NCBI GenBank assembly: GCA_963663965.2
Contig: CAXXFK010000011.1
Span: forward strand, 128,001-192,000
From: Sedimentisphaerales bacterium
GTDB lineage: Bacteria; Planctomycetota; Phycisphaerae; Sedimentisphaerales; SM23-30
Reading direction: 5' to 3'
DNA: 64,000 nt
Shown: one piece after another, positions 10,301 through 38,463 of the stretch
Position numbering within the stretch: position 1 is the first letter of the stretch
How the letters are laid out: each line of letters starts with the position of its first letter
Translations under genes and position numbers: made by a program
Notes under the pieces: model-generated
Told to the model about the DNA's origin: nothing
Seen by the model: only the letters and a program-made list of their open reading frames with translations
Databases searched by the model: none

Positions 10301-13300
10301 TTCTGGATGAAATCGGTTTACCCGACGGCAATCTATATCGGATGGATAGCGGTTACGATAAGAAGAACCAGAGCAAGACCCAGATTAAAAACAACTCTGA
10401 TGTCTCCAGTTTTATCAGCAGTACCACCGGCTATAATAAAACGAATCCCTACCAGCCTCTGGACTGGTGGCAGGTGAACACCGATCTGGCTACCTATTAT
10501 AGTTCAAGGTCTGTCGGTATCGCTTGTAACGATTCCGACCGCCGTCCCGAAGCCAATTGCATTTATTACAGCAATCCAGAAACCGGACGCTGGATGATGC
10601 TGCCCTGGGATCTGGATCTGATGTTCGAATGGGGCACCCATTACACCGACTGGGAACACTGGTCCTACGTGCTCAGTTACCCGGATATCAGTATTGCCTA
10701 TAAAAATCGAGCCCGCGAGCTGATGGATCTGCTCTTTAATGCCGATCAGGCCGGTCAGGTTGTCGAAGAACTCGCTGCCATAATCAGCGCGGAGGAATTA
10801 TCACGTTCCTTTATCGAAGCCGAACGTGCCATGTGGGATTATCACCCTCGTATCAATCGTAAAGGTCAATGGTACGAAAACAATGAATTCCTTGTCACCA
10901 AGAACTGGCAGGGCATGGTCAATTATTACAAAACCTTCCTCACTCCCGAAGGATTCGATAATGGCTATACCTACGGTGTGAAATCCCTGATAGCCGATTC
11001 TGCCGATTCCAATATTCCTCTCACCCCGACGATCTCCTATCAGGGCGCTGGCGGTTTCCCGGTCAACGACCTGCGTTTTCAGACCAGTTCGTTTATGGAT
11101 CCTCAAGGTTCACAGTCTTTTGCCGCCATGAAATGGCGAATCGCCGAAGTCGCACCCTATACCAAAACGCCTCTGCCAGATCTGGACACCGGCCAGACAA
11201 CTGAACCCACCGTACAGACTTTGCTGGGTCAGCAACAGATCTGGAAATATTTTAAAGGCAAGACAGAACCCTCAGACCCTGTCGAAAACTGGCGTCAGCC
11301 AGACTTTAATGATAATGACTGGTTAAACGGCCGGACCTCTATCGGCATAGGCGACCAGGATGACAACACCTACTTGTTCGACATGCGTAATAAATACTTT
11401 ACTGTTTATCTCCGCAATACCTTCACCGCCACGGATATCGATCGCATCGAACAACTCACCCTGCAGGTCTATGTGGATGATGGCTGTATCGTCTGGATCA
11501 ACGGCCACGAAGTCGCGCGTCCTTATTGCCCGGATGGCGACATCCCCTTCGATCAGGCCATCGCCTCCAATCACGAAGCGGATTACGAAAACAACGCTTA
11601 TGAAATATGGACATTGCCCGCTCCCTATGACTATCTGGTAGAAGGGGTCAACACCATCGCCGTGCAGGCGGTTCAATCCAGCGAGACCAGCAGTGATTTC
11701 TCCATCGATATCGGGCTGATCGCGCAAAAGGCCGCTCAGACCGGCCCGCAACCTTACATTGAAAAGTCTTATGCCTACCGGGTTCAAAAAGGCAAGTACG
11801 AAATTGATCCCATCTGGGAAAGCGGCGAGATTACCTCGTTCAGCAGTTCGGCGAAAATACCCGGTAGCGTGGTGAAACCGGGTAAAACCTACCGGGTACG
11901 ATGCCGGATGAAAGATAATACCGGTCGCTGGAGCCACTGGTCCCAACCCGTCGAATTCACCGCCGGGGCGGCCCTGGGCCAGAACGTACTCGATTCTCTC
12001 CGGATAACAGAAATCATGTACCATCCCGCCGAAGATGAAATTGGCCGCTATGACAGTGATGAATACGAATATATCGAACTGAAGAACATTGGCACAACGG
12101 CCATCGACATCAGCGCGGTTTCATTTACGAATGGAATTGAATTCAATTTTGCCAGCGCGCCCCAATCATTGCAAACGCTGAATCCCGGACTTTATCTTCT
12201 GGTGGTGAAAAATCAGGCCGCTTTTGAATCGCGTTACGGCGCCGATGCTTCCGGAAGAATCGCGGGGGAATATGATGGCAAACTCTCCAACTCAGGCGAA
12301 TCGATTCACCTGGAAGATTACTGGAATGGGACTATCGTTGAATTCAGTTTCAATGATGGCCTGGGTTGGCCCGCCACTCCTGACGGTGGCGGACACTCGC
12401 TGGTAGTCAAAGATATGGCGATAGAAGATGAACCGCTGGGTACCCTGGATTATGGCGGCAACTGGCGAGCCAGTGCGTATCGCCACGGATCTCCCGCGGC
12501 GGAGGATCCCGAACCGGCAGTCTCAATTGTTTTAAATGAAATCGTTGCCCATACCGACTACAGTGATCCGGCCTACCCGCAGTATGATTCCAACGATAAA
12601 ATTGAAATTTTCAATACTACCCAATCCCAATGGTCCCCGGGCAACGACTGGTATCTGACAGATGATTTGGGCAATCTAAAGAAATGGCGCATTCCCGACC
12701 TGCAACTGGCCGGCGGCGCCCACATCGTCTTTGATGAGGTATCCGGTTTTCATAACCCCATTACCGAAGGTTTTGGCCTGGATAAAAGTGGAGAACTGGT
12801 TGCTTTGTCCTATTTACCCGGCAATGCAAGCGATCGGATCGTTGACTGTGTCCGGTTTGTCGGCCAGGAAAATGGCGTGGCGCTGGGCCGCTATCCGGAC
12901 GGGGGTGATTTCTGGTTCGCCATGACGCCCACCCCGGGGACATTCAATTCCCTGCCCAATCATGATTTAGTCATATCAGAACTCATGTACCATCCGCTCG
13001 AAGGATCTGACAACGATGAATATATTGAAATTTACAACCCAACCGGCTCGGTAATCAATCTGTTTAATGACATGGGAGCCTGGCATCTGGACAATGCGGT
13101 TTCTTACCTGTTTCCCTCCAACCTCTCGTTAGCTCCCGACCAGCGAATTATCGTCGTTCCTTTCGATCCGGCCGATACAGCCCTCCTGACAGCGTTCGAA
13201 ACCGCATACGGCATCGCTCCACTCACCCCCCAAGTGAATGTATTCGGCCCGTATGATGGCAATTTATCCAACGGCGGTGAACGCCTGGCGCTGGAACGTC

Positions 13301-13494
13301 CCCTCGCCCCGGATAACCCGGATGATCCAACCATCTGGGTATGCGTCGATGAAGTGAATTATGGTGATTACGCGCCCTGGCCAGGCCTTGCGGATGGTTT
13401 CGGCCAGGCGCTCGAACGAATTTCAACCCAGCCGGAAGCCGGCGGTAACGATCCGGCGAACTGGCAGGCCATCAATCCCAACCCCGGGTTATAG
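7378..13494 (+). CDS. Giant secreted CotH-family kinase with lamin-tail domains and an internal dockerin-like pair (CotH-1)
   Basis: Signal peptide; YYWRVD modules; [28 protein letters not shown] starts [31 protein letters not shown]. CotH motifs [42 protein letters not shown]. Confidence 0.9.
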
Positions 13495-13643
13495 GCCGAC
13501 AGAACCGGTTTCCAAAAGACTTGTCCTGTTTGTTTGTGCACCGATAGCCATAATGATTTCACTCTGGTCATTGCCTGATGATCCCGATCGGATCATCAGG
13601 TCTCACTTGGTTTTATCCTTCAGTTGACATGTCGCAGCCCGCC

Positions 13644-16600
13644 TCACGGCCAGATGGCTTTTACTGAAAATTCTCCCGGCGCCCCTACTCCTGACAGAAC
13701 TTCCTTGACCGAGATTTTCCCAATAGCAGTCGCCGCGTAAAGCCCATAAGGATCACCACCGCCACCCTGCCAGGCTTGTCCTATGGCTACCGATTTGATT
13801 ACTCCCCCGGCTTCGCTCAAATGCTGATTGGCTGTATTTCCGGCAAGAATATCCGTGACCGAAATGGATGCTCCCAGCGAAACAGGTTCAATACCTGCCA
13901 GAGCAAAACTGCCATCGAATGTTCCGGTCTTGCCCGTTTTTATCGATTTCAACTGAACCTGTTCCGTTTCATTCAGAACTTCATCACCGGTTCCGGGTAT
14001 CGCGTCCGCCCCGATATCATAACCGCACAATAACAGACTGTCGATGATATCCGTTTTCGACTGGACTGCCTGCATATGCCGGCCGCTGGATATCAGGCTG
14101 TCCTGAACGGACTGGGCCGATATTTTTCCAATATCCAGGCCCGCGCGCAATACCGCGTTTTCCACTGAACCGGCTTTGGTAGCCAGTTTCTTGATGCTGC
14201 CTTCGGCATTGACAATGCCCCGGATGGAGCCATAAACACTCACGGAACCGATATCTCCTGAACGGGCTACCAGATCGCCGGCCAGGTCGCCGCTTTTAAT
14301 GGCAACCGATTTGATCGAGTCCGCGCTGATCTGACCACCGGCCATAGAGGCCGTTTGCAGTTTCTTTAAATCATCATGCAATTCAATCTGAACGCCTTCT
14401 CCAATCCGTTCGGCAGTTAACGAAACGCCCTTTATCGCTGATCCGACGTAAATCCCGGCGAAATCATCAATGACTCCCAGTGATATGGCGCCGAGATTCC
14501 CCGTAACATGGATCGTTCCGGCCAGATCGGCCTGTTTGGCATTCAAGCTCTTTAAACCCACACCATTAATATCGCCCAGAACAAGACGATCATCGCCTCC
14601 TTTGGCTTTGATCGACATCGAAGCGGCCTGACAATCCTCATCCAGCAGTTCAATCGATGCCAACTGAGCCCGGCCGCTTACGACTAATACCTTTTTAATC
14701 AGTTGATAGGAAAGGTCTTGACCAGTAAAACTGAAGGCAGCGGCTCCCTTGCTCAATTTAATATCAATCTCTGTATCATCCAGATCGGTGTATCGAACCG
14801 ATTTGGCCATGCCGGGCTCCAGTTCAACCGTGAATTGCTCAACACCGGCATCGGCGCAAACCACTTCACCGGCCCGGTTGTCATCATCCCACACCTGCGC
14901 CAGAAACGATAATTGACCGGCCGGCAATACTCCCGTATCCACCGTCATAATCAATCCATCTGCCAGGGTATTATCGCTGCCCAGGAACAAATCGGATTCG
15001 TCCGGAAAACCGTTGCCATTACTGTCCAGATAAAAATCTGCTTTCTGAACTACCCCGTCCGGATCGCCATATTCGGTCAAAGCCAGGGTTACCGGCTCGC
15101 CATGAATGACGGTCTGTGGTTCAATGGATAAAACGCCGCCCGTTGGCGCCTGATTTAAACGGAGGCTGGTTCCGGCAGGTTGACTCTGATTGCCTTGAGC
15201 ATCCTCTGCGACGGCCCAGAATGTGATGATGCCTTCCGGATAGGATGTCACGGTCATGATCCATGACCAGCCATCCGCGGAATTGGCATCCACACCTGAA
15301 AGTGTATCCAGACCGGAATCAAATCGGCCATTCCGATTGCTATCGTAATAGAATCGAACGGCGTTCATTTGATTTTCCGGATCGCTGACGCCAACCGCGC
15401 TGAGTGTGATGGTATCGCCAGGATTGATAACCGCCTGATCAACGGCTAAACCGCCGGTAACCGGGGGTTGATTATCATTAATTTGTGCGGTGACTGACAC
15501 CACCGGACTGTATGCGCCGCTATCATCCTGAGCCCGGGCAAAGAATCGCTGATTTCCGCTTCCCAGACCAGCCGTTGCAACCGTCCAGCGCCACCCATCG
15601 CTGCCATCGCTATCAGTGCCCAGCAGCAAATCATTGCTGTCGTAGCTGCCATTGGTATTGCTGTCTAAATAGAATAATACCGCATTCAGACCCCCCTCTG
15701 GATCGCTCACCTGATCCGCTACCAGTACGATCGGATCGGGCTTGACGGTCTGATCGGGGGTGGCGGTTAATGATCCAATAACAGGCGGCATATTGGCCGC
15801 AACCACCGTCAGAGTGACACTGACAACATTACTCCATTCACTTTCATTATCCAGCGCCCTGGCCAGTATCCGGTTATTCCCAATCGCCAATCCCTCGGTA
15901 GTTCCGCTCCAGGTCCAGCCATTGGCGCTGTTGTAATCCCGTCCCAGCAGCAAATCATTCGAATCGATTTGCAGATTCTGGTTGGTATCCAGATAAAATT
16001 CACATCGAATCACGGCGCCATCGGCATCACTCACGTTATTGGCCGTGATGGCCCAATTGCTGCCTTCCGTGACCGGATTGGGGATCGCGAATATCGATCC
16101 TATGGTTGGCGCCCGGTTCGGCGCTTTGATGATCATTTCTGTGGAGATGGCGCTGCTGTCTTTACCGTCATTGTCTCTGGCTACCGCAAAAAATCGATTG
16201 CTCCCATTATATAATCCACTGGCAATGCCATCCCACTGCCAGCCATCACTGCCATCGGTATCCTGTCCCAGCTGGTCATCCTGACTGTCCAGCCGGCCAT
16301 TACTGTTACTGTCATGATAGAATACGATCTGTGCGATCGAACCATCGGAATCGGCCGCACTGCTGACTATCAGACCAAACGCCTCTCCAAGCATGACCGG
16401 ATTGGGTTGACCGGTCAGCGAATCTATCTGAGGTGATGCGTTCAAAACCTGACCGCCAATCCAGTTGGCCGGATCATTGCCATACCCCATCATCGCAACG
16501 CGGATCAGGGCCGTGCCATCCCCATCCGGTCCTTCCGGCCAGGGCGACCTGTCATCGTAATTGGCCCGGTCCACCCGGATGTATTCCCGGATCCCATCCG

Positions 16601-18077
16601 GGGTTAATTCATCCACTGGCATCCCCAGTTCCAGACGCTCTCCCTTGTTGCTTAACGAGGTCTGGTTAGCAAACGGCCCCAGAATCTGGGGATTGTCCGT
16701 TGGGGTGCCATAGACGGAATTAAATACTGCCGGATCCTGGGCGACTATTAAACGCCCGCCTGCGGGTATCGTCGTGTTTAATGGAAAGACATATTCGATG
16801 CCGTCGGTAAACTGCCAGGGAATCCAGGCTTTCGCGTTGCTGTCATAGACTTGTAACGTCACGTCCTGATCGGTCACATTGAATAATTCGATATATTCGG
16901 CGCCGGCCTGATCGTTAACCGGATGATACATGATCTCGCTGAAGACAATCGGACCGGCCAGCGGAGCGGCATTTTCGCCGCCCGGGGTATTGACACTCAT
17001 CGCGACAAAATTATAGGTGTCGGTCGATTTTTCATAACGTCCGAATGAGACGCCGCTGATGGACGCGGCAAAATCTTTCTCTTCAAACAGACCGGTTAAC
17101 TCGATATTGTCATCATCGTCAATCTGACCTCCCGACGACAGGATCACGACGTCCCCGTATTCACTTAGTCCGAACGGTTCCAGCGCTCCCGGATCGGATG
17201 CGGCGTATCCGAAATGCTCCATCTGGTTGAAAACCAGATAGCCATGGGCGGGAATGATGGTTCCCTCGGCAATCTGATATTTTTTTAATTCAGCCAGATC
17301 GTCACTTAAAAACCAGTTGCCGACATCCACGGGATTGGCGCTGAGATTATGCAGTTCGATCCAGTCGCCATTGACCTCATCGGAATGAGCCAGGACCTCA
17401 TTGACAACCACCGGACGTTCCAGGACATCCGCCCGGCCCGGGGTACCGTACCTTTCCGAGGAAGGACGCCAGCTGTCACGGTCATCATGATCGTCGATCG
17501 ACATGCCGGTTGGATTTTCCAGGGTCAGTGAAAAGACACCCTTGTCGGTAATTGGGTACCAGACATCGTAAATAGGATCCCCATTTTTATCGACCATGTC
17601 ATTCCCCGCCTCATCGGTCAAGACCGGATTATATGTCATATCGATTACCGTTAGATAACCATCCGGACTTGAGCTGTTTGGCACCTCGATCTTGATCCGC
17701 TCATCCATGCTGCTCAATCCGCTGTCAAGTGAACCGGGAGCAACGGTCACACCGGAAAGATCGTAGCGTAATGCCAGCGCCGCGGCATTGCGGGCGACCA
17801 CCATATAAGCGTTCGGTGCCAGCGATTGGTTGCCGAAAGTATATCCGGTCCCTTCGCTGATCTTTACGTTTTTCAGCGAAATGGTGGTGGTGCCGCCATT
17901 ATAGAACTCGATATATTCGAAATCCTGGGAAGTATAGCCCTGATTATTGTCGACCGGATCCGGGTTATACATAATCTCACTGATGCGCAAACCATCATAA
18001 GCGGAAAGTAAAAGGCGTTTTTCCAGGTTCTCCAGGAAAAGGGCGTTACGATGGTTTTTACGTTGTGCGTCTCTCAT
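13644..18077 (-). CDS. LEPR-XLL-type extracellular protein with three LTDs, five Ig-like repeats and a C-terminal Gly/Ile-rich beta-repeat region
   Basis: N-terminal LENLEKRLLLS. LTD starts ISEIMYNP, VNEVLAH, FSEIMYHP. Five ~108-aa repeats N.xP...V..G...D.xG....FY.DxN.N...D. No CotH catalytic motifs. Confidence 0.8.
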   Translation of the reverse strand: MRDAQRKNHRNALFLENLEKRLLLSAYDGLRISEIMYNPDPVDNNQGYTSQDFEYIEFYNGGTTTISLKNVKISEGTGYTFGNQSLAPNAYMVVARNAAALALRYDLSGVTVAPGSLDSGLSSMDERIKIEVPNSSSPDGYLTVIDMTYNPVLTDEAGNDMVDKNGDPIYDVWYPITDKGVFSLTLENPTGMSIDDHDDRDSWRPSSERYGTPGRADVLERPVVVNEVLAHSDEVNGDWIELHNLSANPVDVGNWFLSDDLAELKKYQIAEGTIIPAHGYLVFNQMEHFGYAASDPGALEPFGLSEYGDVVILSSGGQIDDDDNIELTGLFEEKDFAASISGVSFGRYEKSTDTYNFVAMSVNTPGGENAAPLAGPIVFSEIMYHPVNDQAGAEYIELFNVTDQDVTLQVYDSNAKAWIPWQFTDGIEYVFPLNTTIPAGGRLIVAQDPAVFNSVYGTPTDNPQILGPFANQTSLSNKGERLELGMPVDELTPDGIREYIRVDRANYDDRSPWPEGPDGDGTALIRVAMMGYGNDPANWIGGQVLNASPQIDSLTGQPNPVMLGEAFGLIVSSAADSDGSIAQIVFYHDSNSNGRLDSQDDQLGQDTDGSDGWQWDGIASGLYNGSNRFFAVARDNDGKDSSAISTEMIIKAPNRAPTIGSIFAIPNPVTEGSNWAITANNVSDADGAVIRCEFYLDTNQNLQIDSNDLLLGRDYNSANGWTWSGTTEGLAIGNNRILARALDNESEWSNVVSVTLTVVAANMPPVIGSLTATPDQTVKPDPIVLVADQVSDPEGGLNAVLFYLDSNTNGSYDSNDLLLGTDSDGSDGWRWTVATAGLGSGNQRFFARAQDDSGAYSPVVSVTAQINDNQPPVTGGLAVDQAVINPGDTITLSAVGVSDPENQMNAVRFYYDSNRNGRFDSGLDTLSGVDANSADGWSWIMTVTSYPEGIITFWAVAEDAQGNQSQPAGTSLRLNQAPTGGVLSIEPQTVIHGEPVTLALTEYGDPDGVVQKADFYLDSNGNGFPDESDLFLGSDNTLADGLIMTVDTGVLPAGQLSFLAQVWDDDNRAGEVVCADAGVEQFTVELEPGMAKSVRYTDLDDTEIDIKLSKGAAAFSFTGQDLSYQLIKKVLVVSGRAQLASIELLDEDCQAASMSIKAKGGDDRLVLGDINGVGLKSLNAKQADLAGTIHVTGNLGAISLGVIDDFAGIYVGSAIKGVSLTAERIGEGVQIELHDDLKKLQTASMAGGQISADSIKSVAIKSGDLAGDLVARSGDIGSVSVYGSIRGIVNAEGSIKKLATKAGSVENAVLRAGLDIGKISAQSVQDSLISSGRHMQAVQSKTDIIDSLLLCGYDIGADAIPGTGDEVLNETEQVQLKSIKTGKTGTFDGSFALAGIEPVSLGASISVTDILAGNTANQHLSEAGGVIKSVAIGQAWQGGGGDPYGLYAATAIGKISVKEVLSGVGAPGEFSVKAIWP

Positions 18078-18122
18078 ACTGTTCTCCAGTGCCTCCTGTA
18101 AACAAATTCATACTTAACCGGC

Positions 18123-19832
18123 TCAACCCTGGTTGGATAACGGATTCTCCCTGGAACCGACACGAATCTCCGGTTCGCCATCGGCATGAATCCACAGCAA
18201 TTCGGTATCTCTTAAAAAATTCAATTCGGCGGTAGCGTAATCCGCCAATGCGGCGGCGTAAGCGTTTTGAGCCTGCAGGTAATCCTTCTGAGCGTCCAGC
18301 ACATCACGCGTACTGGCCCGTCTGTACTGTAATAATAACGAGGTATTTTCCAGCCGCTTGTTCGCCAGAGTCTGTGCCTGCTTTTGCAGTTCATAACGTT
18401 CCCGGGCTTCCTGCATATCGCGCCAGGCCTGTCTGATGCCCGCTGAGATCGCTTCTCTCAGCAATTGATCCTGACGCTCGGCTTGAGATAAGGCGATAAT
18501 CGTCCGCTTATAATCGTGTGACTCCCAGGTTCGATCCAGGCCCAGGTCGGACCGTAACGACAATTCATAACGATCCTGTGCCGGATCGATCTCACTCGAA
18601 TCGGTGTCCAGTATGGCCCGATTTTGATGTCGGGCGGGTTCTAACCGGCCGGTTATCGCCAGATCGGCTTTCAATGCGTCCGCGGCAATCTCGACCTGAC
18701 GCCGTGCGTCATCTACCCGGTCTTCACTGCTGGCCAGATCCAACCGTTGCTGCAATGCCAGTTCCACCGCGGCTTTTTCATCGGTGGGCCAACTGGGATT
18801 GCTGGCCAGAGCCCGGATGAACGGAGCCTGTAATTCGATCCTCAGCTCCGTCTCCTGAGGAATCAATAATCGCACTTTAAACTGGTCCAGAGCATTATCG
18901 TATTCGTTGATCGTCCCGATCAAAAGGGTTTCCGCCTTGATGACATCCTGACTGGCCTGTTCCAGTTCGTATCGCGACAATCGGCCCACCTGGCTCAAAT
19001 CCAGCATGGATCGATAGATTCGCTGCAACTGTTCATAGTTCGCCCTGGCATTTTGAGCCTGCCAGGCCAGTTGGGCCAGTTGCCAGTAATCCGTGGCGGT
19101 CGACACGCAAAAACTCTTGCGAAACCGGATAAAATCGCGCAGCGCGTATACCGTATCCCGCTGAGCCTGGGTCAGCGGTTCCATAACCACTTTTCTCGAT
19201 CCGCCGCGCAAAAGCGGTTGAGTCACCGACGCGTGAAAGATCGAGGTTAATCCCGATCGAAAATCGCCGGTCAATATATCGAAATAACCCAGGGTGAAAT
19301 TCGATGACAGCGTTGCTCCTGTCGAGAGCAGTTGGTTAAACCCGGCGGTCGCTTGTCCTCCGGCAATTTCATCGGACCCTTCTTTATGATAACCGGCAAT
19401 CCCTCCGGCAAAGGGATGGAGGGTATAAAAATGCTGGACATCCGCTTGATTCAATCCCGCCAGATAGAGCTGCTCGCAGGCGGTTCGGTAATCATGACTG
19501 TTCAGCATCCCCAGCTGGATCGCCTGTTCCAGATTTATTGTACCCGCTTGACGGATGGTTTCCAGTAACACCACCGCTTCCGGATCCATCTCATTGGGGT
19601 CGGTTTGGGTAAGTTTCGCCAGATTGCCCAGATCAGGATCCCAGTTTGAATCCAGAATTTGATGAACCCGCTGGTCGGTTTGTCGCTCGGCGCGGATGGG
19701 ATCAACACCACATCCTGCCAGGACCAGCAGGCAACCCATCACCAGCAGGATGATCGGTATGGAATGGCGGCAACAGCTCTTTTTAAACAGAATAGCCATA
19801 CGTTCGTATTCCCTGACAATCAGACCCATCAA
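18123..19832 (-). CDS. TolC-family outer membrane efflux lipoprotein
   Basis: Lipobox LAGC; SVTQPLLRGG; ALQQRLDL; DVLDAQKDYLQAQNAY (OEP-type helices). Its start overlaps the HlyD stop codon. Confidence 0.88.
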   Translation of the reverse strand: MMGLIVREYERMAILFKKSCCRHSIPIILLVMGCLLVLAGCGVDPIRAERQTDQRVHQILDSNWDPDLGNLAKLTQTDPNEMDPEAVVLLETIRQAGTINLEQAIQLGMLNSHDYRTACEQLYLAGLNQADVQHFYTLHPFAGGIAGYHKEGSDEIAGGQATAGFNQLLSTGATLSSNFTLGYFDILTGDFRSGLTSIFHASVTQPLLRGGSRKVVMEPLTQAQRDTVYALRDFIRFRKSFCVSTATDYWQLAQLAWQAQNARANYEQLQRIYRSMLDLSQVGRLSRYELEQASQDVIKAETLLIGTINEYDNALDQFKVRLLIPQETELRIELQAPFIRALASNPSWPTDEKAAVELALQQRLDLASSEDRVDDARRQVEIAADALKADLAITGRLEPARHQNRAILDTDSSEIDPAQDRYELSLRSDLGLDRTWESHDYKRTIIALSQAERQDQLLREAISAGIRQAWRDMQEARERYELQKQAQTLANKRLENTSLLLQYRRASTRDVLDAQKDYLQAQNAYAAALADYATAELNFLRDTELLWIHADGEPEIRVGSRENPLSNQG

Positions 19833-20980
19833 TGGGGCATGACGCCGCGAACCCCCACAATTTCATTGCTCAGCAGACTGATGCCATCCGGCACCAGAAT
19901 ACGGACGGGACGCCCCCATTCCGGCACCGTCGGATGCCGCCACATTTGTTGAGGAATTGGTTCGATGGTCGAACTGATTGCCTCGACTTTTGTTTGGATC
20001 CGCATCCGCGGCTGATTATTCCGCATGATCTCAATTTCCTGATTCTCCATAATCAGATCGGATTGGGATGGATCCAGCCAGACCACGACGCAATCCGCCT
20101 GAGGACGGCTTAGCGTCAGCATCGCTGAGCCACCCATGATCGCCTGGCCTTCCTGGCATACGATGTCTGTTACCACGCCATCAAACGGCGCCTTGACGAC
20201 AATCTCGCTGACCGGCAGAAACAACTCGGCCAGACGATGGGTTTGCACCTCAATCGCCCGCGAAAATGGCTCCAGCATAATCTGGAGTTTGCGGGTATCA
20301 TTCTCATTCTCTGGCAGTTGCGCCAGCCGCTCCCGGGCGGCCTGTAGATCCTGTTCGATCTGATCCAGCAACGCTTGTTGCTGCGTTACTTTCACGGCCA
20401 TCTGTTCATAGGCCTGCGAGGCTTTTTCTACTTCGTAGGGCTCAACCGCATCACGGGCCAGCAATTGCTCCAGTATCGTTTTTTCCAGCTTCAGACTTTC
20501 CAGCTCGATCCGGTCTGGTTCCAGATCGGTCTTGACCGTCAATGCCGCCAGGCGCGCCTTCTCAATATCAAGGGTTAAATCCGCCAGCCGGCGCGCCCGT
20601 TCACTGGCCTGCATTTCATAGGATTCCAGCAGGTCTTCCCGGGCGGCATTCAATTCCGCTTCCAACCGTTTTAATTCCGCCTGGGCGGTCGCGCGTTGCG
20701 CATCAAACAAGGCTTTGGTATATTCATGGTCCTGATGGATTCCCTGCTCGGCCACAACCAGTACGTCTCCCCGGCTGACTTTCTGGTAAAGTTGCACCGG
20801 TAGTCGGGCCACCGTAACATCAGCCACGCAACTTGCCAGATAGACCTGCGATCGCGCCAGACCGGCCACGGAGTAAGACTGACTCCGTTGCATGTACAAC
20901 CAGATCACAGCGCCCACCGCGATCAACCAGACTAACGGCGGTAAAACTGCATTAAAAGCCTTTCCTTTGGTTTGCCTCAT
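19829..20980 (-). CDS. HlyD-family membrane fusion / periplasmic adaptor protein
   Basis: N-terminal TM; lipoyl half-motifs VQLYQKVSRGDVL and VKAPFDGVV..EGQ; long coiled coil. Confidence 0.88.
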   Translation of the reverse strand: MRQTKGKAFNAVLPPLVWLIAVGAVIWLYMQRSQSYSVAGLARSQVYLASCVADVTVARLPVQLYQKVSRGDVLVVAEQGIHQDHEYTKALFDAQRATAQAELKRLEAELNAAREDLLESYEMQASERARRLADLTLDIEKARLAALTVKTDLEPDRIELESLKLEKTILEQLLARDAVEPYEVEKASQAYEQMAVKVTQQQALLDQIEQDLQAARERLAQLPENENDTRKLQIMLEPFSRAIEVQTHRLAELFLPVSEIVVKAPFDGVVTDIVCQEGQAIMGGSAMLTLSRPQADCVVVWLDPSQSDLIMENQEIEIMRNNQPRMRIQTKVEAISSTIEPIPQQMWRHPTVPEWGRPVRILVPDGISLLSNEIVGVRGVMPH

Positions 20981-20993
20981 CGATCAGAACTCC

Positions 20994-21689
20994 TTACATC
21001 TCTAGAAGCTGTTCCTGCATAGTCAGGCTGACATTTTGCACGCCCTTCAACTGGCGAATAGCGGCCAGTAACTTTTCATTCTTTGCACTGTTACGCAACG
21101 ATAACTGGTAGGAATAATGAATCTGATTCTCTCCTAATCCTCCTGAATTGGAAGACACCAGGGTAAAACCACGGCAGAATTGAGTCAGAATCGATAACGC
21201 CGGATGGGTGTCGTCCAGGGGATCCATGCTGGTAAAATGCAACATCGCGTTACCCGGATGACTCATGCCAAAATCGGCAACATACAAATACAACAGAACC
21301 AGATATAAACCGATACTGCCGGTGATTGCCAGAGCGTATCGCCCTGATCCACAGGCCATTCCTATTACCAGCGAACAAAACAAAAAGGTGATATCACGCG
21401 TATCTTTAATCACATTACGAAAACGGATCAACGATAATGCGCCCATCAACCCAACGGCAATCACAAAGCTGCCCGCGATCGTCCGCATAACCAGCGAAAC
21501 AATGATCGTCATAATGATCAGCGATTGAACAAACGTTTTGGAGTACGACAAGCTGATATGGGTAAAATAATAGATCCACGCCAGAGCCTGTCCCAGAACA
21601 AATGCCAGTAAAAAGGATATTGCCGCCGACCAGATATCCAAATCGCCGCCGGCGGAATAACCATCAAGTATATGCCAGAATTGTTCCAT
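20994..21689 (-). CDS. DUF4956 family membrane protein
   Basis: Hallmark AVGLMGALSLIRFRNVIKDTRDITFLF..LVIGMACG; several TM helices and a soluble C-terminal domain. Confidence 0.9.
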   Translation of the reverse strand: MEQFWHILDGYSAGGDLDIWSAAISFLLAFVLGQALAWIYYFTHISLSYSKTFVQSLIIMTIIVSLVMRTIAGSFVIAVGLMGALSLIRFRNVIKDTRDITFLFCSLVIGMACGSGRYALAITGSIGLYLVLLYLYVADFGMSHPGNAMLHFTSMDPLDDTHPALSILTQFCRGFTLVSSNSGGLGENQIHYSYQLSLRNSAKNEKLLAAIRQLKGVQNVSLTMQEQLLEM

Positions 21690-21764
21690 GATATTTTTCG
21701 CTATTATTGATAGTATAAAAGGTTGGATGAATGTTAAGGCGCAGGGAAGCCTCTTTTTCAGGGC

Positions 21765-22677
21765 TTAATGGAGGCTCAATGGATGAAATAAGCCTAAGGA
21801 TGTCAAATGACGTACCGTAGTACAATATTTCGACATGGATTGCCGGTTCAAATTAAAATACTGGACCATGTGATGAACCCAGGCCGGAAAATGCTCCGAA
21901 AATTTGATTTCCAGCACGACAAAGCTGATGGGCAGCTCTGTCCATCCTGCTCCGTTCATGGTAAAGGTTGGATTGCCTATCGATCGGCAACTGATTTTCC
22001 GATCGAATGTAATACGCACTCGTGACTCGCCCTCACACTCGAACGCTTCGCGCTGATATCGCACCAAGGCGATGGGATGGGCTCGAAGTGAGGAACTGTA
22101 ATGATAAAATTGCCGCAAAACGGACAAGTCTTTTTCGGATTTCGCCCCAGACATATCCCCTTTTAAAACGGATTGGATCTGATGTTTGGCAACGGCTACG
22201 CGGCTCTTATACACAATCCGATTGAGTTTCCGCTTGATTTCAAAAAATACCGGGGTACTCGGATTGTCATCGTAGCCGCGTATTCCGCAACTTGAAACGA
22301 TTGCACTTGTCTTGAAACGTCTCACGGAATAAATTCATTTCGCTGGAATCAAGATAAATGCTGCATATGCCGTATTGACCCGAGGGTTGCCTCGCCGTAT
22401 AGATATCCGGCTGCATGTAATGCAGGAGATAGGACCGCACCGAATAAGCCAATGTCTCCGGGATTCGATATTTCAACTCATAACGCCGCGCCAGCATACC
22501 GCCTTGATTCAGATTCACGCTGGCAGCCTGCACGACCCTCAAAGGGGTTATGCCAGACTCCAACGCCTTTATCTCGCGTGCAGTTGCTTCGTCGCTAATT
22601 AAAGGGGTGGTTTGTTTCGTAGCAGGGGGACTCTCTAACGAAACAAGGCTATCATGCTTGGTTCCAGTGACACTCAT
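21765..22677 (-). CDS. VTC-domain (polyphosphate polymerase-like, CYTH fold) protein, split by a +1 frameshift near 22283
   Basis: RRYELKYRI, SIYLDS and RFKLR lie in one frame; IRGY, FFEIKRK, YQREAF, RITFD, VLEIKF and SKYC lie in the next. Deleting one A from CGG-AATA-CGC restores KLRIRGYDD. Confidence 0.88.
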
Positions 22678-22892
22678 GATTGTTTATGATGAAATTTTCA
22701 GGATTGTATAATGATCATTTATTATGGATTAAATAAATATGAACACTATTAGCTTATTGCACTATTTCCCATTTCTACAATCTTATTCTAACACTCTCCT
22801 AACATGTTTTCAACATAAATTTAATGCTTTTCGAACTTTAAGTGCCCGATAATATACAAGTTTACATACTTTGTATCAAATATAACGGCTCA

Positions 22893-25800
22893 TTAATTTA
22901 TTGAAACGCCAATCTGGGCCTCCCATGCCATGGGATTACTTCCAGCGACGCCGGAAATCATATTGTTTCGATGCAAAACCATGCCAGATCCATCGGCCTC
23001 TGCCGGCCAGGGCGACTGATCGAAATAAATCACTTCATCGATTGTCACCCAGGGGATCTCGGTTCCGCCTGGATCCAGTAGCAACGGCTGCCTCAGCGTA
23101 ATGCGGCCGGTTTCATTGGAAAGTTCTCCTTCCAGGGACCGATAATATCCAGACCGCGGTTAAAATCCCCGCTGATAATTGGCTATAAACTGCGCTAATT
23201 CCACTGACTGCGATGGATCAAAGCCAACCACAATGACTTTTTTGCCGGCGGCCAGACTGAAATCAGACGGGAATGCAAATTCGACATCGCCATCCAGTTG
23301 CCAGGCCCCACCTTCGCCTGAGAAATCAATTTCCCGTCCTGTGGGATTATACAACTGGATATATTCATATTCACCGGTTTCATCGGGATGATACATCACC
23401 TCACTGATCAGGATATCCTCAAATGGTTCCACATTCGCCGAACCCGCAGAGGCAGGCATGCTCAACCACCACTCCGCCCTATCCGGATACCGCCCAATCG
23501 AAATAGCCACTCCTTCCGCCGTCGCGTTCTCCTGGCCTTCAAATCGGACATAATCGACAATCCGATCACGGGCATCTCCCGGCAGATAAGACAGAATAAC
23601 CTGCTCTCCGGCTTTATTTAAACCAAATCCATTAGTGATCGGATTATGAAAATCATGGACTTCATCCAGCACCAGATAGCTCCCCGGTTCGATCTGCCGG
23701 CCTGCAAGCGAATACTTGGTCAATCGCTCAGGATCATCGCTCAAATACCAATCCTGCAGCGTTTGGGTTACTTCACCGGCATTGACCAGTTCAATCCAGT
23801 CGTTGGAATCATATTCAGGGTAGGATGGATTCTGATAATCCGTATGCGCCTTGATCTCATTGACCATCACGCTGGGAGCAATCATTTCATCCGCCCTGCC
23901 CGGCGATCCGTGCAACCGGGCGCTCATCCGCCAGTTCCGATGATAGCTTAACGATCCATCATGCTGATCGGCATAGGTTATATCGAGCGGTACCAGCGAA
24001 TGACCCGCGCCATCGGCCGCCTGGGGCCATTCACGGCCATCCTGATAACTAAAGTCCAGGATATCCCCATTCCAGTAATCGGTTACCCGGATTGTCTCTC
24101 CGCTATTGGAAAGCTTGCCCGAATAACTGCCGGCTATCCGATCGGAATAATCAGTGCCATAACGGCTCTCGAACGCTGCCTGATTTCGTACTATCAGAAC
24201 ATACTCATCTTTGTTCAGGGTTGTTATCGGGCCATCGGCAAAATGGAAAGTAATCCCATCGGTAATCTCGACCCCGGATAAATCCAGAGCTTCATCCCGG
24301 TATTCTGAAACTCAATAAATTCATACTCATCCGAATCTACCGGACTGCCATCCATCGGCAGCGGATTGTACATCAGTTCGGTAAGCCTCAAATTCTGCAC
24401 CAGGCCGGCCCCTAATGGCGTTCCTGCCACAAACTGAACCGGGCTGGACCAGTGGCTCCAGCGCCCCGTATTGTCTTTCATCTGGCAACGTACGCGATAA
24501 AGACGTCCCATTTGCAAAACCGATCCCGGTATGGTTACCTGACTATCAAAGCGATCAATCTCACCGGATTGCCATACCGGTTGGAGTTCGTAAGCCCGTT
24601 TTTTCAAGGTAGGGACCACCGGGACTTGCTCCTCATAACTGGCAGCCAGCTTCATATCAAAGAAGCAATCAGAACTGCCGGCATCGACATTAATCACATG
24701 AACAGCAATTTGATTCTCACCTTCTACCAGATATTGAGCAACGTTTTCTACAATAAAGGCATCATAAGTATTTTCGTCGCCCCGATACGGATACCCATAT
24801 TGAGACAACAACGCATTATACGGCAGATTCTCTTGCGGCACATTGGCCGACAACACCCGATGCCCGTTGATCCAGATATTGAAACCATCATCGTATAAAA
24901 CGAAAAATCGCAATTGGGCAATATCCTCCGGATGGGTCACCTGGAATGTTCGACGCATATAAAACGTGTAGAATTGATTCCGCATCGTCAACGGCGAACC
25001 CATCGAAACCGCCGGATCATATCCGACCGGCGCCGGGCCTTCTTTCCATGACGTCGTCGCGGGATTGTCATTATAACCGGCCAGACGCCACGCCCCGGGT
25101 TCCGTGGAAGGTTCGGAACGCCCTTCAAAATAACGCCAGCTGGAATACGGCTCGATCAGCACAAAATCGCTGGATTGCTGATTGGCCGCCAGATCCGGAT
25201 CGATCTCCGCGATCCGCCACTGCAGCGCGGCAAAGGTATTGGCACCCTGTGGATCGGAAAATGCTGTTGTGCTGAATTTCAAATCGTTCAATGGATATCC
25301 CGGACTGCCGGCATAAGTAATCACCGGTGTCGCCGGCAATGCCGCCGCGTCCCCTTCCGCGTTGGCCAGTTCATCGAGATGATAATCCGTGCCCGGCCAG
25401 CTCCAAACGCCGCTTTCCCAGGCAAATTGTTTCATCTTGGCCGCAATCGCCTCGATGCTGCCATCGTCACGGCTGCCGCCTTCCGTTGGATTCAGACGCC
25501 ACCGGTCCCGTTCGGCAGAAACCAGCGGAGCGATTTTATTGACCATCTCATCCAGCATGTAATCGATCACCTCCGGCTGCCAGTGCAAATCGCGAAATTC
25601 CCGTATCGTATTCCGTAACTCCTGCCGGATGGATGCTTTCTCGGGCTGGATCGTCAATTGCACCAGACCGTCATTATACGCCTGATCATAAACCGCCGCG
25701 GTCGCGTGGTCCACCCCCATATTCCAGTACGGCCCCCAGGTATCATCCACATCGAACGGCAAGACCCACAGTTGGCCATACTGATTGTTCGCCGGTGTAT

Positions 25801-28800
25801 AATTGGGATAAAAATACCACGCTACGTTTTTCAAACAATGGAAACAGGTCGGACCCGAAAATAAATCGTAATGCCGGATCGCCTCACTCACCGTTTTATA
25901 CCGGTACCAGGCATCCGTGTCCAGCCAGGCCCGTACCTGGTCCGCCGTCGCACTGGCATTCAAATTCCAGCGAATAAACTCATAATCCGCACCTTCTGTC
26001 ACCGCGTTCTGAGCCTGATAGCGTAATTGACGGTACCCTTCATAAATCTTATCTGAGAGCTTATATAAATTGCCGGCCGGCATCCCATGGTTATCCAGGA
26101 ATGCACCGTCATAATCTTCCCAGGCGATATAAATCCCATGGAAATCTCCCTGATACTGGCCATAAGTCCCAGTTGGCGCTTCCTCGGCGCCATCAATCAC
26201 GCGGAAATGGAACCAATATCCCTCCGGAGCAGGTAAACCCGCAATATTCCATAATTTCATATCGATCAGTTCGTTGAGGCCATAAAAACCTTCCATCCGG
26301 TTGCCGAACATTTTGCCCGTCACCAGATGCTGCCAGCGCTCCGGAAATTTTTTGCCATGGATATCACGGGCCTGAAAATAATCACCACGGTTAAATCGGA
26401 ATTTCATCGAACGCTTATTGCCATAATAGCGTCCGTTTCCGCCTCGTGCGCGGTAGGCCACATGGTCATATACCTCGCCATCATAAACGAAACAGCATTC
26501 CCAGTTATACGCCTTACCCGCCTCCTGATTATTATAACTGGTGGTGCTTTGATTGATCTGATCGCCCGAACTATACCCGCTGCATTGATAGTAATCGGCG
26601 CCACGCGTCAACATGAAATAAACTGGCACCGAGGTCATCACCTCGGACGGATAAGCATAGCCCACACCCTGCGGCTGTACGGTGTCGCGCGTAATCACGT
26701 AATCCGGCACACCATCATAATAAAACGCCGCGAAATTCATCCTGCCATCATCATAATAGGGCACACGAACCTCTGTCCCGTGGCCATCTCGCGCCACAAT
26801 TCGGTATCGTAATAAATAACGGTTCGGCTGCCCGTTCACAATCACACTATAGGTATTGTCATTTGCCGCCTCATCGCCATGCGTTCCATCATCATACATC
26901 GTCATTGTTGTCCAGTTGGCCGCGTTTTCAAAAGCCGGATTGATCGGCTGGCGCTGATGAGGCTGGGATAATAGCGATGAAATCCCCACCGGAAGATACG
27001 CCGGGATAAACGCGCCCGGTGCGACGATCTGGATCCTGGCCTCTACCGATGCCACGCCATCCGGATCGGTTACTTTGGCCGTTATGAGCATGGCCTGCCC
27101 CGACCTCGGCTCCGATCGATTCTGATTGATCAATGGATTGATCACCCGATGCGAAACCTGCCTGATCTGCGGCGGTATCGTCGGACTGAATACGCTGTTG
27201 CCAAACCCCGGGGTGGGTACGCCATAGGCCAGATCGAACTCTGCCTCATGATAGCCCGACGCACGCCAGCTGCCGCCCAGATCGTTATCCAGATCCGGGT
27301 GAATCAACTCCATAGACGCTCCTTCGCCATTGGCCGCCACCGGCCAGGGAAACGCGCTGCCATATTCCACCTGATCCACTTTCTCGCCCTGGTTATTACG
27401 CAATATGATGCGTTCACCCTCGTTGCTCAGCTTGCCATCCCAGGGTCCAAGTGCCGTTACCCCGAATTTGTCGTATACGGCCTCTGGATAACCGGCAACA
27501 ACAATAAACTCGCCCGGCTCCATCATGGTACCCGCCGGAAACGTATAAGAAACGGCATCGCTCAGCTGCCAGCCGGACAGATCGATATATTGGACGCCTG
27601 CGTTCAATAACTCGATAAATTCAACCGGTTCGTTATTCTCACCTTCATGATAATGTATTTCATTGATCACGATTTTGGGGGTGTTACGATTCAGCCACTG
27701 ATCCGACATGACCGAATAATCACCAATATTCACCTGGGCGGATCGATCCAGATCCGGGCAGTCATACCCTTCACAGACCAGTTGATCCAGCCACTGCTGG
27801 ATTAACAGCATCAGATCGGCAATATCCACAACGCAATTGCCGCTCAGATCACCCGGCAGACAGGGCCCCGGTTTGCTGATCGTCTTGAAATGCCACTGTT
27901 CGCCCTGGGTTATCCCCCCCCCCGCTTCCATCGCGTCCAGGCGCCAGTAATACTCGCTGTAAAACGCCAATTGGCCGGTCACATAATAACCATCGGTCAG
28001 ATGGTCCGCGACCAGGGACATGCCTTCAGGCGTTTGGCCCAGCCACAATCGATAACCCGCCGCGCTGTAGCCCGGTATCCACTCCAGCCGGATCTGGTTG
28101 GCGGGTATGCCATCCCGCCCATTCTGTGGATATAACAGTTCCGCCAGATAACTTTCCGTCTCAAATTCCCATACGGTACCTTGTATCTTCTGACCGGATG
28201 CTAGCAGAGCGTCAACTCGCCAGTAATACACCCGTTCCCGTTCCAGACCGGTTATTTCATAAAATCTCTGTTCGCCGGTTACCTGGCCCTGGTAGATCCC
28301 TGCGGTACTGGAAGAAGCGCTGTCGACGGCCGCGCGGTCAACACCGAAATACACATCAAATCCGGTGACATCCTCGCCGCCGTATTGCCAGCTTAATTGC
28401 ACATTCCCTGTCGCCACTCCCTGGGCATAATTGGCCGGCGTTGGCTCGGTTGGTTCATAAAACGCCAGGGAATCCGGACCTGCCTGATAATTGGCCTGTA
28501 TCAGATTCTCGCTTAAAGCGAAATCATAAATCCGAAACTCATTAATCCCCCCCACGAGCATCGTATCAACCCACTGTGATCGTCCCAGCCAGTTATTATT
28601 ATCGATCATCTCACTCAAGGAAAAATGCGCCATTCCCCGGCCGGCCTCCACACCATCGATATAAAGAATGACATCCTTTAAACGCCCATACCAGACTACT
28701 GCGATATGATGCTGACCGGCGGTTAAGGAGGAACCGTCAATAATATTTTCCGATACCGTGGGACCATGCCGCCAACCCAGGCGAACACCTGTCCCGCCCC

Positions 28801-29206
28801 CTTTTGGAGTCAGGAAAATATAGCTGCTGTTACCCGAGGCAATCGAAACATCTTCCCCGCCATCACTGGTGCCAAAATCAAATACCCGCTGCCAGTTCCC
28901 GCTGCCGTTCCAGGTCATCCACACTTCAAAGGTCGCCTCGACTCCCAGACTCGATATGATCCCGTTTGGCAGATCCACATAATCCCCGCCACTGCCCGAC
29001 ACCTGCGAACCATTATTACCCAGAATAATCGAACCGTCAGAAAAATTAACGCCGCCCGTCTGATTAATGATAACGCCATCAGCACTGCCAACCGAATCGC
29101 TGGCATCCGTATCAAAACTGTAACGGTGCACCAACCCGCCATGACATAAGGATACCGCTAACACGAAAATAAATAACGTAATTTTGATCGGAAGGTTCTT
29201 CTTCAT
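22893..29206 (-). CDS. Giant secreted CotH-family kinase with N-terminal LamG, dockerin-like pair and LTDs (CotH-2), broken by apparent indels near 24297 and 23130-23173
   Basis: Joins ORFs 24224..29206, 23160..23927 and 22893..23084. Adding one G at 24296-24298 gives NTGDEALDLSG...[11 protein letters not shown]...GKLSNSGE, colinear with CotH-1. CotH motifs RARGG..KRSMKFRF and LWVLPFDVD. Confidence 0.88.
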
Positions 29207-32786: not shown

Positions 32787-33578
32787 TCAGTTGCCGGACT
32801 GTTGACAAAGTTTAATGGTGTGGGTGAGCAGGTCCGTGCTGCCGGTGGAACCGTGGCCGGGGATAATGGTTCTGGCTTGAGGGTAACGTGATCGGACCAA
32901 CTGAACAGAACGGGGCCAGGCGTTGACATCGCCATCAGCAATATTACCTAATCCTTGAGCTGAGATTGCCCTGATCAGGCAACCGCCAAACAGAATCTGT
33001 TCTTTATCGAGCCAGACGACAATATTATCCAGGGCGTGGCCGGGACCGGGATAAAAGAGTTCCAAGGTGCGGGAAGCAAACTTAATCCGACAGAACAGTT
33101 CAAAACCGTGGTCCGGAACGGGCAGTTTTTTTTGTTGGGCAATGGTGATGGTTTGGGCCTGCGCCCAGGAGGTCGCGCCCCTTTGTTGGGTTTCGGCCAG
33201 ACCTCCCATGCAGTCGACATGCCAGTGAGTCGGGATCACTATTTTGATCCTGGCCCCCCACTCTGACTCGACCCAGTTGAGCAGTTCGGCAGTCTGTTCG
33301 TTTGTTACGGGGGTATCAACCAGTAAGGCCTGATCGCCATCGACCAATAGCAAGCCGTTGGACTGTACCCGGCCCCACTGCTCAAACTGGTGCCAGGTTT
33401 GGTGCAGCCAGACGCCTTCTGCCAATCGCTGTAATCTGATATCCGGGCTAATAACAACCTCACGGGCCTGCCAGGAGGGACGGTCACCAGGAAGCCGGGT
33501 AGATTGGCATCCGGATAAGAATACGAATGCTAATAGTAACGTCAAAATCGACCAGGCTCTAACTGACATCCTTGTCAT
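32787..33578 (-). CDS. Subclass B1 metallo-beta-lactamase, predicted lipoprotein
   Basis: SNGLL; VDTP; THWHVDCMGG (H116/H118/D120); GPGHALDN (H196); FGGCLI (C221); LGNIAD; PGHG (H263); lipobox LSGC. Start set to ATG 33578 (GGAG RBS) because GTG 33623 lies inside the upstream terminator. Confidence 0.9.
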   Translation of the reverse strand: MTRMSVRAWSILTLLLAFVFLSGCQSTRLPGDRPSWQAREVVISPDIRLQRLAEGVWLHQTWHQFEQWGRVQSNGLLLVDGDQALLVDTPVTNEQTAELLNWVESEWGARIKIVIPTHWHVDCMGGLAETQQRGATSWAQAQTITIAQQKKLPVPDHGFELFCRIKFASRTLELFYPGPGHALDNIVVWLDKEQILFGGCLIRAISAQGLGNIADGDVNAWPRSVQLVRSRYPQARTIIPGHGSTGSTDLLTHTIKLCQQSGN

Positions 33579-33610
33579 ATTGGAACTCCATTTATAGAAG
33601 GATAGATTAT

Positions 33611-33645
33611 AAAACTGCCACACCCAGTCTATTAAGTGTGGCAGT
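33611..33645 (-). terminator. Intrinsic terminator downstream of the GH92 gene
   Basis: Minus strand ACTGCCACAC-loop-GTGTGGCAGT followed by TTT. Confidence 0.7.
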
Positions 33646-37861: not shown

Positions 37862-38407
37862 CTAAATGATTACATCAGGTAGTGTGGGTACCTCCACGCG
37901 GAACCTGCCATTCCAGCAAAATACCATGCCAGTGCCGGTAACAGGGTATCCATAAGGAGTAATGCGGCATTCTGAACAGGCCCAGTGAAACAGGATCTGC
38001 TGATCTTCTTTTGACAAGCCGTTCCGCGCATACGGCTGTTGGAAGAACGCTTCAACGCAACAGGGCGGATAGCCAAACAGATACCCTTCCAACCGAACCG
38101 TTTCCAGAGTCTTATCTATCGGCGTTCGATCAAAGCGCTCCAGATAAAGATCACAATAGGGCTGAAGTGTACTGAACAGGGTCTCAACAACCTCATGGCC
38201 GCTCTGCACAGTGCGAACGACGCTCGCGGTATGCAATCCCATCGTTTGCATAAGCGATAGCTGCGCGGCAGTAACAGGTTTCTCCCATCGACTCAACGGC
38301 TTGACCCCCTGACGGGTTAACAATGCCAGATAAGCCAACTGCATTTCAGATTGTTCTAACTGCTTAACGCACTCACGGATAGTCGCTTGTGTTTCATCCA
38401 CCGGCAT
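37862..38407 (-). CDS. Cys-rich hypothetical protein (DUF483-like)
   Basis: KPLSRWE; GYLFGYPPCCVEAF; FHWACSEC. The C-terminus may be frameshifted near 37955. Confidence 0.55.
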   Translation of the reverse strand: MPVDETQATIRECVKQLEQSEMQLAYLALLTRQGVKPLSRWEKPVTAAQLSLMQTMGLHTASVVRTVQSGHEVVETLFSTLQPYCDLYLERFDRTPIDKTLETVRLEGYLFGYPPCCVEAFFQQPYARNGLSKEDQQILFHWACSECRITPYGYPVTGTGMVFCWNGRFRVEVPTLPDVII

Positions 38408-38463
38408 TTACCTCTTCCTGACAATGAATGTCAAAACTCCGCATGAAGCGGTACAACGGGAAT

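Follow-up and report, generated by a model that had tools for sequence, protein, structure and literature searches.

A conserved cassette of a Vtc4-type polymerase-like gene, DUF4956 and a pump-less periplasmic adaptor in a planctomycete, a candidate polyphosphate exporter

What would a HlyD-type adaptor and a TolC-family outer-membrane factor carry when no pump is encoded beside them, and why do they follow a polyphosphate-polymerase-like gene? The question is raised by a 64,000-nt stretch (the window, whose positions are used throughout) of contig CAXXFK010000011.1, part of the 7.2-Mb, 42-contig assembly GCA_963663965.2 of a Sedimentisphaerales bacterium. In this locus a VTC gene, a gene for the inner-membrane protein DUF4956 and the adaptor gene follow one another, accompanied by TolC and by genes of secreted CotH-type kinases. 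The answer that we favour, with a probability of about 0.5 and from sequence and model comparisons, is that VTC, DUF4956 and the adaptor may carry out synthesis-coupled export of polyphosphate (polyP). The conserved linkage of the three genes, the lack of a linked pump, the intact Vtc4-type catalytic residues and the protein folds are established here.

An adaptor cassette without a linked pump

Gene identities are based on open reading frame (ORF) calls and family scans of 25 window proteins. They agree with the initial annotation on six co-oriented genes, all on the reverse strand: CotH-2 (22893..29206), the VTC/TTM polyP-polymerase-like gene (21765..22677), DUF4956 (20994..21689), an EmrA-type adaptor of the HlyD or membrane fusion protein kind matching HlyD_3 and HlyD_D23 (19829..20980), a TolC-family outer-membrane factor with PF02321 (18123..19832), and a scaffold of three LTD domains and a Big_7 domain (13644..18077). 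The gaps from VTC through the scaffold, given before as 75, 13, -4 and 45 nt, were exact on recomputation; the -4 value depends on a TTG start of TolC, since the ATG at 19829 gives a 1-nt overlap with the adaptor stop. DUF4956 is indeed the sole protein with multiple transmembrane (TM) segments among these genes, and no ABC, RND or MFS family was matched among the 25 proteins scanned, so that the reported lack of a pump partner in the locus holds.

We compared 121 non-redundant DUF4956 loci, a sample without the own-genome loci in which the clade of the window is over-represented (one search contributed the best 80 out of at least 586). The adaptor is downstream in 80 of them, VTC being adjacent in 79 of these 80, and the order VTC-DUF4956-adaptor is intact in 73 non-redundant loci, a recurrence which indicates that the arrangement is not due to chance. 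The same three genes are intact in 18 of 27 relative loci fetched, and an independent scan of metagenomes seeded by VTC peptides found the adaptor in 32 of 41 VTC+DUF4956 loci. PF09359 was matched in 22 of 41 genomes, own genome included, and the closest named relatives of the window DUF4956 belong to Anaerohalosphaeraceae / Sedimentisphaerales planctomycetes. What remains constant is VTC-DUF4956-adaptor. TolC has been added in particular lineages, and the LTD scaffold is an incidental neighbour. The six-gene machine of the initial annotation did not survive this comparison: most cassettes have no scaffold-like neighbour, TolC is adjacent in part of the loci only and cannot be taken as an invariant part, and the position of CotH is variable. 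The VTC-DUF4956 core also exists without an adaptor in many loci, and several genomes, including this one, have both arrangements.

The adaptor has an N-terminal TM anchor and a long hairpin, with EmrA as best PDB match (4tko, E 2e-27) and further matches to adaptors of type I secretion systems (T1SS), namely LipC (5nen, E 1.7e-16) and HlyD. Its profile has 26 matches at E<1e-30, distributed in 23 of 301 genomes of the phylum, and all 26 are in VTC-DUF4956 cassettes; it forms a dedicated clade, found beside DUF4956 in every locus examined. A co-directional ABC or RND gene lies within 5 kb in only 2 of the 80 adaptor loci, and both exceptions are unrelated systems (one is an importer of branched-chain amino acids, the other an RND that has an adaptor and an outer-membrane factor of its own). 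The idea of a HlyD linkage without a pump is thus borne out by the gene-neighbourhood survey. In the own genome, the full-length RND and MacB-type systems examined all come with an adaptor of their own, and EmrB was not matched above the cut-off; among these systems no orphan pump was seen, although an unlinked partner is conceivable. The cassette adaptor is the sole one examined there with DUF4956 as its only membrane neighbour, two weak adaptor hits being outside the comparison. A second adaptor clade is found upstream of VTC in 7 of the 41 DUF4956 loci that have no downstream adaptor, with such loci in Ignavibacteriota, Zixiibacteriota and others. The two clades are distant (HHalign 94%, 18% identity).

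TolC matches E. coli TolC and has a lipoprotein-type Cys (C41) that is invariant in 15 of 15 sequences. In the tree, 38 cassette TolC sequences are on one side of a branch with support of 100, separated from 19 close paralogues that are nearly all ABC-linked and, where visible, lie in TolC-adaptor-ABC-permease operons. TolC follows the adaptor directly in 42 of the 70 loci with room for it (43 when L110 is counted by Pfam), mostly from Sedimentisphaerales; among the distant loci tested for a divergent outer-membrane factor behind the adaptor, only L110 has one. The profile of this outer-membrane factor was matched in 35 of 36 selected genomes, and cassettes without a linked TolC could therefore borrow one.

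A Vtc4-type enzyme and an MgtC-like membrane protein

The VTC gene has about 300 codons and is read in two pieces (22267-22677 and 21765-22325), both with PF09359, which is its only domain: there is no signal peptide, TM domain or SPX. Among PDB sequences its profile matches Vtc4 (E 1.6e-19) and then Vtc2/3 (1e-8 to 3e-7), and no PDB sequence of other TTM/CYTH enzymes was matched at E<=0.01. From the catalytic residues reported as essential in Vtc4 (10.1101/2023.01.27.525886), K200, R264, R266, K281, Y359, R361, E426 and K458 have no exception among the aligned sequences (155-159 of 162; the others are gaps), while the S457 equivalent is found in 142 of the 162. The two halves of the window VTC jointly hold all nine positions. 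K458, the residue lost in the non-catalytic Vtc2/3, is invariant wherever it is aligned in the VTC set. The catalytic equipment is thus of Vtc4 type, and these residues make it likely that VTC synthesises polyP, as had been proposed. PPK1 and PPK2 are encoded elsewhere in the genome, so polyP storage does not need VTC.

The window copy of VTC is interrupted by a single frame break near 22284, and CotH-2 has three frame changes (near 24297, 23168 and 23132) in its 3' LTD tail, with the reading continuing to 22893. All four are in short base runs, with no premature stop within the homologous frames. We consider that the breaks probably belong to the assembly alone and that the organism has an intact copy, long-read error being favoured because the same kind of break occurs elsewhere in the genome, where it splits PPK2, an RND and a TolC paralogue. 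The four breaks within about 2 kb are denser than the genome background of about 1 per 40 kb (frame changes in 24 of 575 paralogue-matched loci, and in 2 of 75 further genes compared with proteins of relatives), which would be expected if VTC and CotH-2 were true pseudogenes in a decaying copy. The further two VTC genes and 11 CotH ORFs of the genome point in the same direction, as does the split VTC in two other loci (L114 and L275); no near-identical intact copy of the window VTC was found, the best having 58% identity. Decay nevertheless seems rather improbable to us, considering the position of the breaks, the nine of nine catalytic residues kept, the same break type in the unrelated genes and the intact DUF4956, adaptor and TolC ORFs in the window. 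It would concern only this copy and is compatible with any function of the family.

DUF4956 is a protein of 231 aa with 5 TM helices and a C-terminal ACT-like domain (AF2 model, pLDDT 78). It passes the PF16316 cut-off and is below the gathering score of PF02308 (MgtC; 21.4 vs 31.4 bits), with MgtC likeness of the TM part in 14 of 26 rows. The fold matches of the ACT domain include MgtC C-terminal domains (7qa5, Z 8.3; 2lqj, Z 7.9), and a fold search with the whole model yielded ACT-like matches only. With the TM domain modelled alone (pLDDT 78) no Foldseek match was found (E>=1.4), the best VIA-align score (Z 7.0) is at the noise level for helical bundles, and Vtc1 is not among the fold matches listed, an absence that decides nothing either way. 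The DUF4956 profile has no match below E 0.4 among PDB sequences, and protein-atlas searches returned DUF4956 clusters only. The initial annotation had taken DUF4956 for the inner-membrane pore. The VTC channel is described as basic, with 15 helices and a basic TM1 lining (PMC9911596). We detected no sequence or fold homology to the Vtc1 channel, so any pore formed by DUF4956 would be analogous to it and not homologous. In 123 aligned rows, R89-x-R91 is invariant and K95 and D99 are nearly so, the conserved polar residues being grouped in two loops (Y40/T43/H44/S48-Y49-S50 and R89-x-R91-K95-D96-R98-D99) which, given a cytoplasmic ACT domain, are expected to face the cytoplasm.

Proposed synthesis-coupled export, CotH kinases and rival readings

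We suggest the following route. VTC would polymerise polyP from ATP, and an oligomeric DUF4956 pore would pass the chain through the inner membrane, the R-x-R...K motif on the cytoplasm side receiving it. Polymerisation itself would drive transport, in place of an ABC ATPase or the proton motive force, and the adaptor would hand polyP to the TolC tube and so to the cell exterior, docking on a dedicated TolC paralogue here and on a borrowed, unlinked one elsewhere. Without the adaptor, the VTC-DUF4956 core could deliver polyP only to the periplasm or wall, where membrane-anchored CotH sits. The most speculative step, overall less likely than not, is that the exported polyP or oligophosphate could be the phosphoryl source for secreted CotH kinases; it is the weakest because B. 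subtilis CotH uses ATP (PMC7821199). Equally conjectural is the wider view of a modular polyP secretion, in which a synthesis-powered class of tripartite exporters would have recruited an adaptor in two gene arrangements and CotH kinases would use polyP instead of ATP.

The CotH proteins have the properties expected of enzymes working outside the cytoplasm. CotH-2 contains a signal peptide, Laminin G, LTD, the CotH kinase domain, Ig-like and LTD repeats, with an uninterrupted ORF at 24224-29206; CotH-1 (7378..13494, forward strand; 2038 aa, intact) has a signal peptide and LTD/CotH domains. Both have N-terminal signal peptides and intact kinase motifs (RxRG...K, D...N, WDxD), in line with the earlier description of them as signal-peptide-bearing and kinase-like. 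Two Asp residues of the PF08757 domain, 24 residues apart, are invariant in 32 of 32 rows, and catalytic D228/D251 are reported for B. subtilis CotH (PMC7821199). The match of the CotH profile to B. cereus CotH (5jd9/5jda, E 1.5e-40) extends over the length of the profile.

CotH is present in 22 of the 23 adaptor genomes and, in keeping with the initial annotation, tracks DUF4956 across the 301 genomes (84 with both, 195 with neither and 22 discordant, 7 and 15 having one of the two alone), a co-occurrence inflated by kin that are not independent. The CotH type differs with the adaptor: in the 55 loci scoreable for both, the ratio of LTD-type to LTD-less CotH is 28:3 beside the adaptor and 1:23 without it, the single exception being a Chloroflexota locus. 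The CotH proteins of adaptor-less loci mostly start with a basic stretch and a TM segment and often have a beta-helix tail (both the N-terminal TM stretch and the beta-helix in 3 loci). In 4 loci of the upstream-adaptor type, CotH carries sorting tails of the type IX secretion system (T9SS). Secreted CotH with the adaptor and membrane-anchored CotH without it fits an adaptor needed for a consumer beyond the outer membrane.

In the own genome there are 12 CotH ORFs, 10 of them giant LTD-type proteins (1660-2291 aa), and 3 VTC and 3 DUF4956 loci. The other loci are DUF4956-CotH without VTC (C18), CotH-VTC-DUF4956 without adaptor (C28) and, within a polysaccharide locus, VTC next to a 7-TM gene (C4). 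Several adaptor-less CotH-VTC-DUF4956 loci of other genomes (from L032, L039, L050, L054-L058, L168, L187, L266 and L276) lie among glycosyltransferase, flippase or glycerophosphotransferase genes, three of them with DUF547 behind DUF4956; the acceptor of CotH may be a glycan of the envelope and not a protein. In L188, L265, L269 and L150 the cassette has arylsulfotransferase-like neighbours, several of which carry T9SS tails and which could be a further extracellular group-transfer consumer. In L163, L181, L119 and L044 its neighbours include SdiA-regulated/phytase-like or DUF3616 propeller proteins. Among the control genomes, VTC, DUF4956 and CotH were all matched in Bacteroides thetaiotaomicron, Corynebacterium glutamicum and Methanosarcina acetivorans, and CotH only in B. 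subtilis.

Besides the kinship already mentioned, several observations weigh against synthesis-coupled export of polyP to CotH. The association of adaptor and CotH type amounts to 1-2 independent contrasts, and a sign test on independent pairs is uninformative; CotH is within the fetched stretch in only 29 of the 80 adaptor loci, and one locus (L243) has a T9SS-tailed CotH beside VTC with neither adaptor nor DUF4956. TolC is not constant, being found in 3 of 20 loci of the adaptor-profile set, two of which end directly after the adaptor, and in 2 of 32 metagenome adaptor loci, where many contigs are short. The cassette TolC keeps the DxxD gate motif, and its net charge does not differ from that of the ABC-linked sister clade (-11.8 vs -12.6, p 0.76), which gives no support to a basic lumen as a polyanion signature. 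No charged residue is conserved mid-membrane in the 123 DUF4956 rows, in contrast to the basic TM1 lining of the VTC channel, and the DUF4956 relative MgtC is described as a regulator of inorganic phosphate (Pi) and ATP, not as a channel. The deletion of the three homologues in S. intermedius, one gene at a time, was reported to leave Pel intact and aggregation barely changed (10.1101/2024.04.20.589940). The ATP use of B. subtilis CotH and the density of frame breaks in the window, both discussed above, count on the same side.

The same tripartite duct could carry other cargo, the TTM protein being a gate that binds or hydrolyses nucleotides, or a maker of tri- or short phosphates only, and the exported ATP, PPPi or Pi serving ATP-using CotH. 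TTM-fold enzymes include triphosphatases. All the linkage evidence fits this alternative equally well, the match of the CotH profile to B. cereus CotH and the reported ATP dependence of CotH (PMC7821199) agree with it, and so does a cassette TolC no more basic than its sisters. We still regard it as unlikely, since catalytic Vtc4 is by far the closest of the PDB sequences to the VTC profile, the polymerase-specific K458 is invariant, and a conserved enzyme is not obviously needed for ATP export. A little less probable is that VTC-DUF4956 forms an MgtC-like regulatory module, dumping excess ATP/Pi into polyP or signalling phosphate status, with the adaptor and TolC being co-regulated and serving an unlinked pump. 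Such a module would explain the MgtC-like TM part (14/26 rows) and ACT domain of DUF4956, the origin of the cassette TolC from a family of ABC-linked outer-membrane factors and the many loci with a core but no adaptor; MgtC is reported to lower ATP and to relieve Pi-driven ATP toxicity (PMC13712879). It does not explain why the adaptor clade is never away from DUF4956 (26/26) or why this core is combined, in different gene orders, with two adaptor clades that are distant from each other; moreover, the own genome showed no orphan pump among the systems examined, and it already has PPK1.

The least credible of these alternatives, which we consider very improbable, takes adaptor and TolC as a protein-secretion duct for CotH or for the LTD scaffold, energised by VTC-DUF4956. 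In its favour are a scaffold gene that follows TolC at 45 nt and encodes no signal peptide, and an adaptor resembling the T1SS adaptors listed above. Both window CotH proteins, on the other hand, have N-terminal signal peptides, and the CotH homologues beside the upstream adaptor carry T9SS tails and therefore have their own exit; LTD-only neighbours elsewhere are mostly signal-peptide-bearing or fragments, and most cassettes have none. Export of polyP coupled to its synthesis is the reading that we retain.

As for transcription, CotH-1 is convergent and therefore belongs to a separate transcript; it was rejected as an operon member, being on the opposite strand. Between the scaffold gene and the convergent CotH-1 gene, an inverted repeat of 11 bp (13574..13600), read from the sequence, is a possible terminator. 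The CotH-2 end and VTC are separated by 215 AT-rich nt containing two 10/12 sigma-70-like sites, and for this reason their co-transcription is not assured, the promoter/terminator scan giving a total at chance level (25 vs 23.8). A Pho-box-like consensus pattern had 21 loose matches, with zero upstream of VTC.

The scaffold has no hydrophobic signal peptide and is not conserved with the cassette. Its N-terminal motif LENLEKRLLLS matches a pattern that 10 ORFs of the genome share and that we take to be the LEPR-XLL / planctomycete extracellular motif, and a protein-atlas search with the scaffold tail returned only unnamed clusters under 0.9. The same N-terminal motif is present in a 3205-aa ORF just past the window (C11:199649-209266). 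Elsewhere in the window, a subclass B1 metallo-beta-lactamase is encoded at 32787-33623 on the reverse strand (NF033088, 269.6 vs a cut-off of 200 bits); it reaches none of the named-family cut-offs shown (best DYB, 240.8 vs 550) and, from these scores, is possibly an unnamed B1 family in a planctomycete. A 3122-aa ORF (54560-63928, reverse) has no Pfam or NCBIfam match, and several ORFs of 180-670 aa (37862-40482, 44889-45668, 49618-50457 and 53359-54378) lack a convincing family match.

Relation to known systems

The route of bacterial polyP onto or beyond the surface is an open question, and the gene products that translocate it are not named, in the text accessible to us, by a study on the polyP pseudo-capsule of gonococci (PMC10237660). 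The cassette offers a candidate of three to four genes that can be expressed directly. It is likewise a candidate for supplying phosphoryl groups to the CotH-type kinases, numbering in the thousands, that are predicted to act extracytoplasmically in non-sporulating bacteria. If the proposed export is true, DUF4956 would gain a function as a new inner-membrane module beside the pump classes already known as partners of adaptors and TolC, and the logic of synthesis-coupled transport would be the same as in the eukaryotic VTC complex with a different membrane part. A literature search, mostly outside subscription papers, found no account of the adaptor/TolC link or of bacterial VTC activity, and the supplements of the pel preprints cited below may list further neighbours. 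The architecture is real, widely conserved and, within that search, undescribed; it is neither the VTC complex nor a known tripartite pump, and plausibly works like both.

A similar arrangement exists in Gram-positive bacteria, among the accessory genes of their pel operons (S. intermedius SIR_1592-1594), where the same triad of CotH, a VTC-like polymerase (PPP) and an MgtC/ACT membrane protein, DUF4956, is described with its function unresolved (10.1101/768473, 10.1101/2024.04.20.589940); the triad also appears in a C. perfringens paper (PMC2879425). The accessible text of the two preprints contains no mention of an adaptor or TolC and no export proposal. Here the triad is in a diderm, the adaptor and TolC are added, and the CotH proteins are giant signal-peptide LTD proteins. 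With the Bacillus spore-coat kinase CotH (5jd9/5jda) these proteins share the RxRG...K, D...N and WDxD motifs, although the domain is embedded here in proteins of 1700-2300 aa with signal peptides in a planctomycete. The MgtC proteins of Salmonella, Pseudomonas and Mycobacterium, tied to Pi/ATP homeostasis, have in common with DUF4956 a TM domain together with an ACT-like domain at the C terminus, while DUF4956 is below the Pfam MgtC cut-off and has its own invariant RFR...K motif and a fixed linkage to VTC.

With EmrAB-TolC, and also MacAB-TolC, T1SS and RND systems, the cassette shares the TM-anchored, long-hairpin adaptor of EmrA type and the TolC-family outer-membrane factor, the latter being sister to that of a planctomycete ABC system; unlike all of them, it has no MFS, ABC or RND pump in the unit, and DUF4956 and an enzyme stand in its place. 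The yeast VTC complex (Vtc4/Vtc3/Vtc1; 3g3q, 7ytj, 8i6v) has in common the TTM polymerase domain with its nine catalytic positions, always beside a small polytopic membrane protein, and the synthesis-coupled translocation that we propose. In contrast to that complex, the polymerase here is soluble and stands alone, with neither SPX nor 3-TM domains, its membrane partner is an MgtC-like protein of 5 TM helices with an ACT domain, and an adaptor and often TolC are added.

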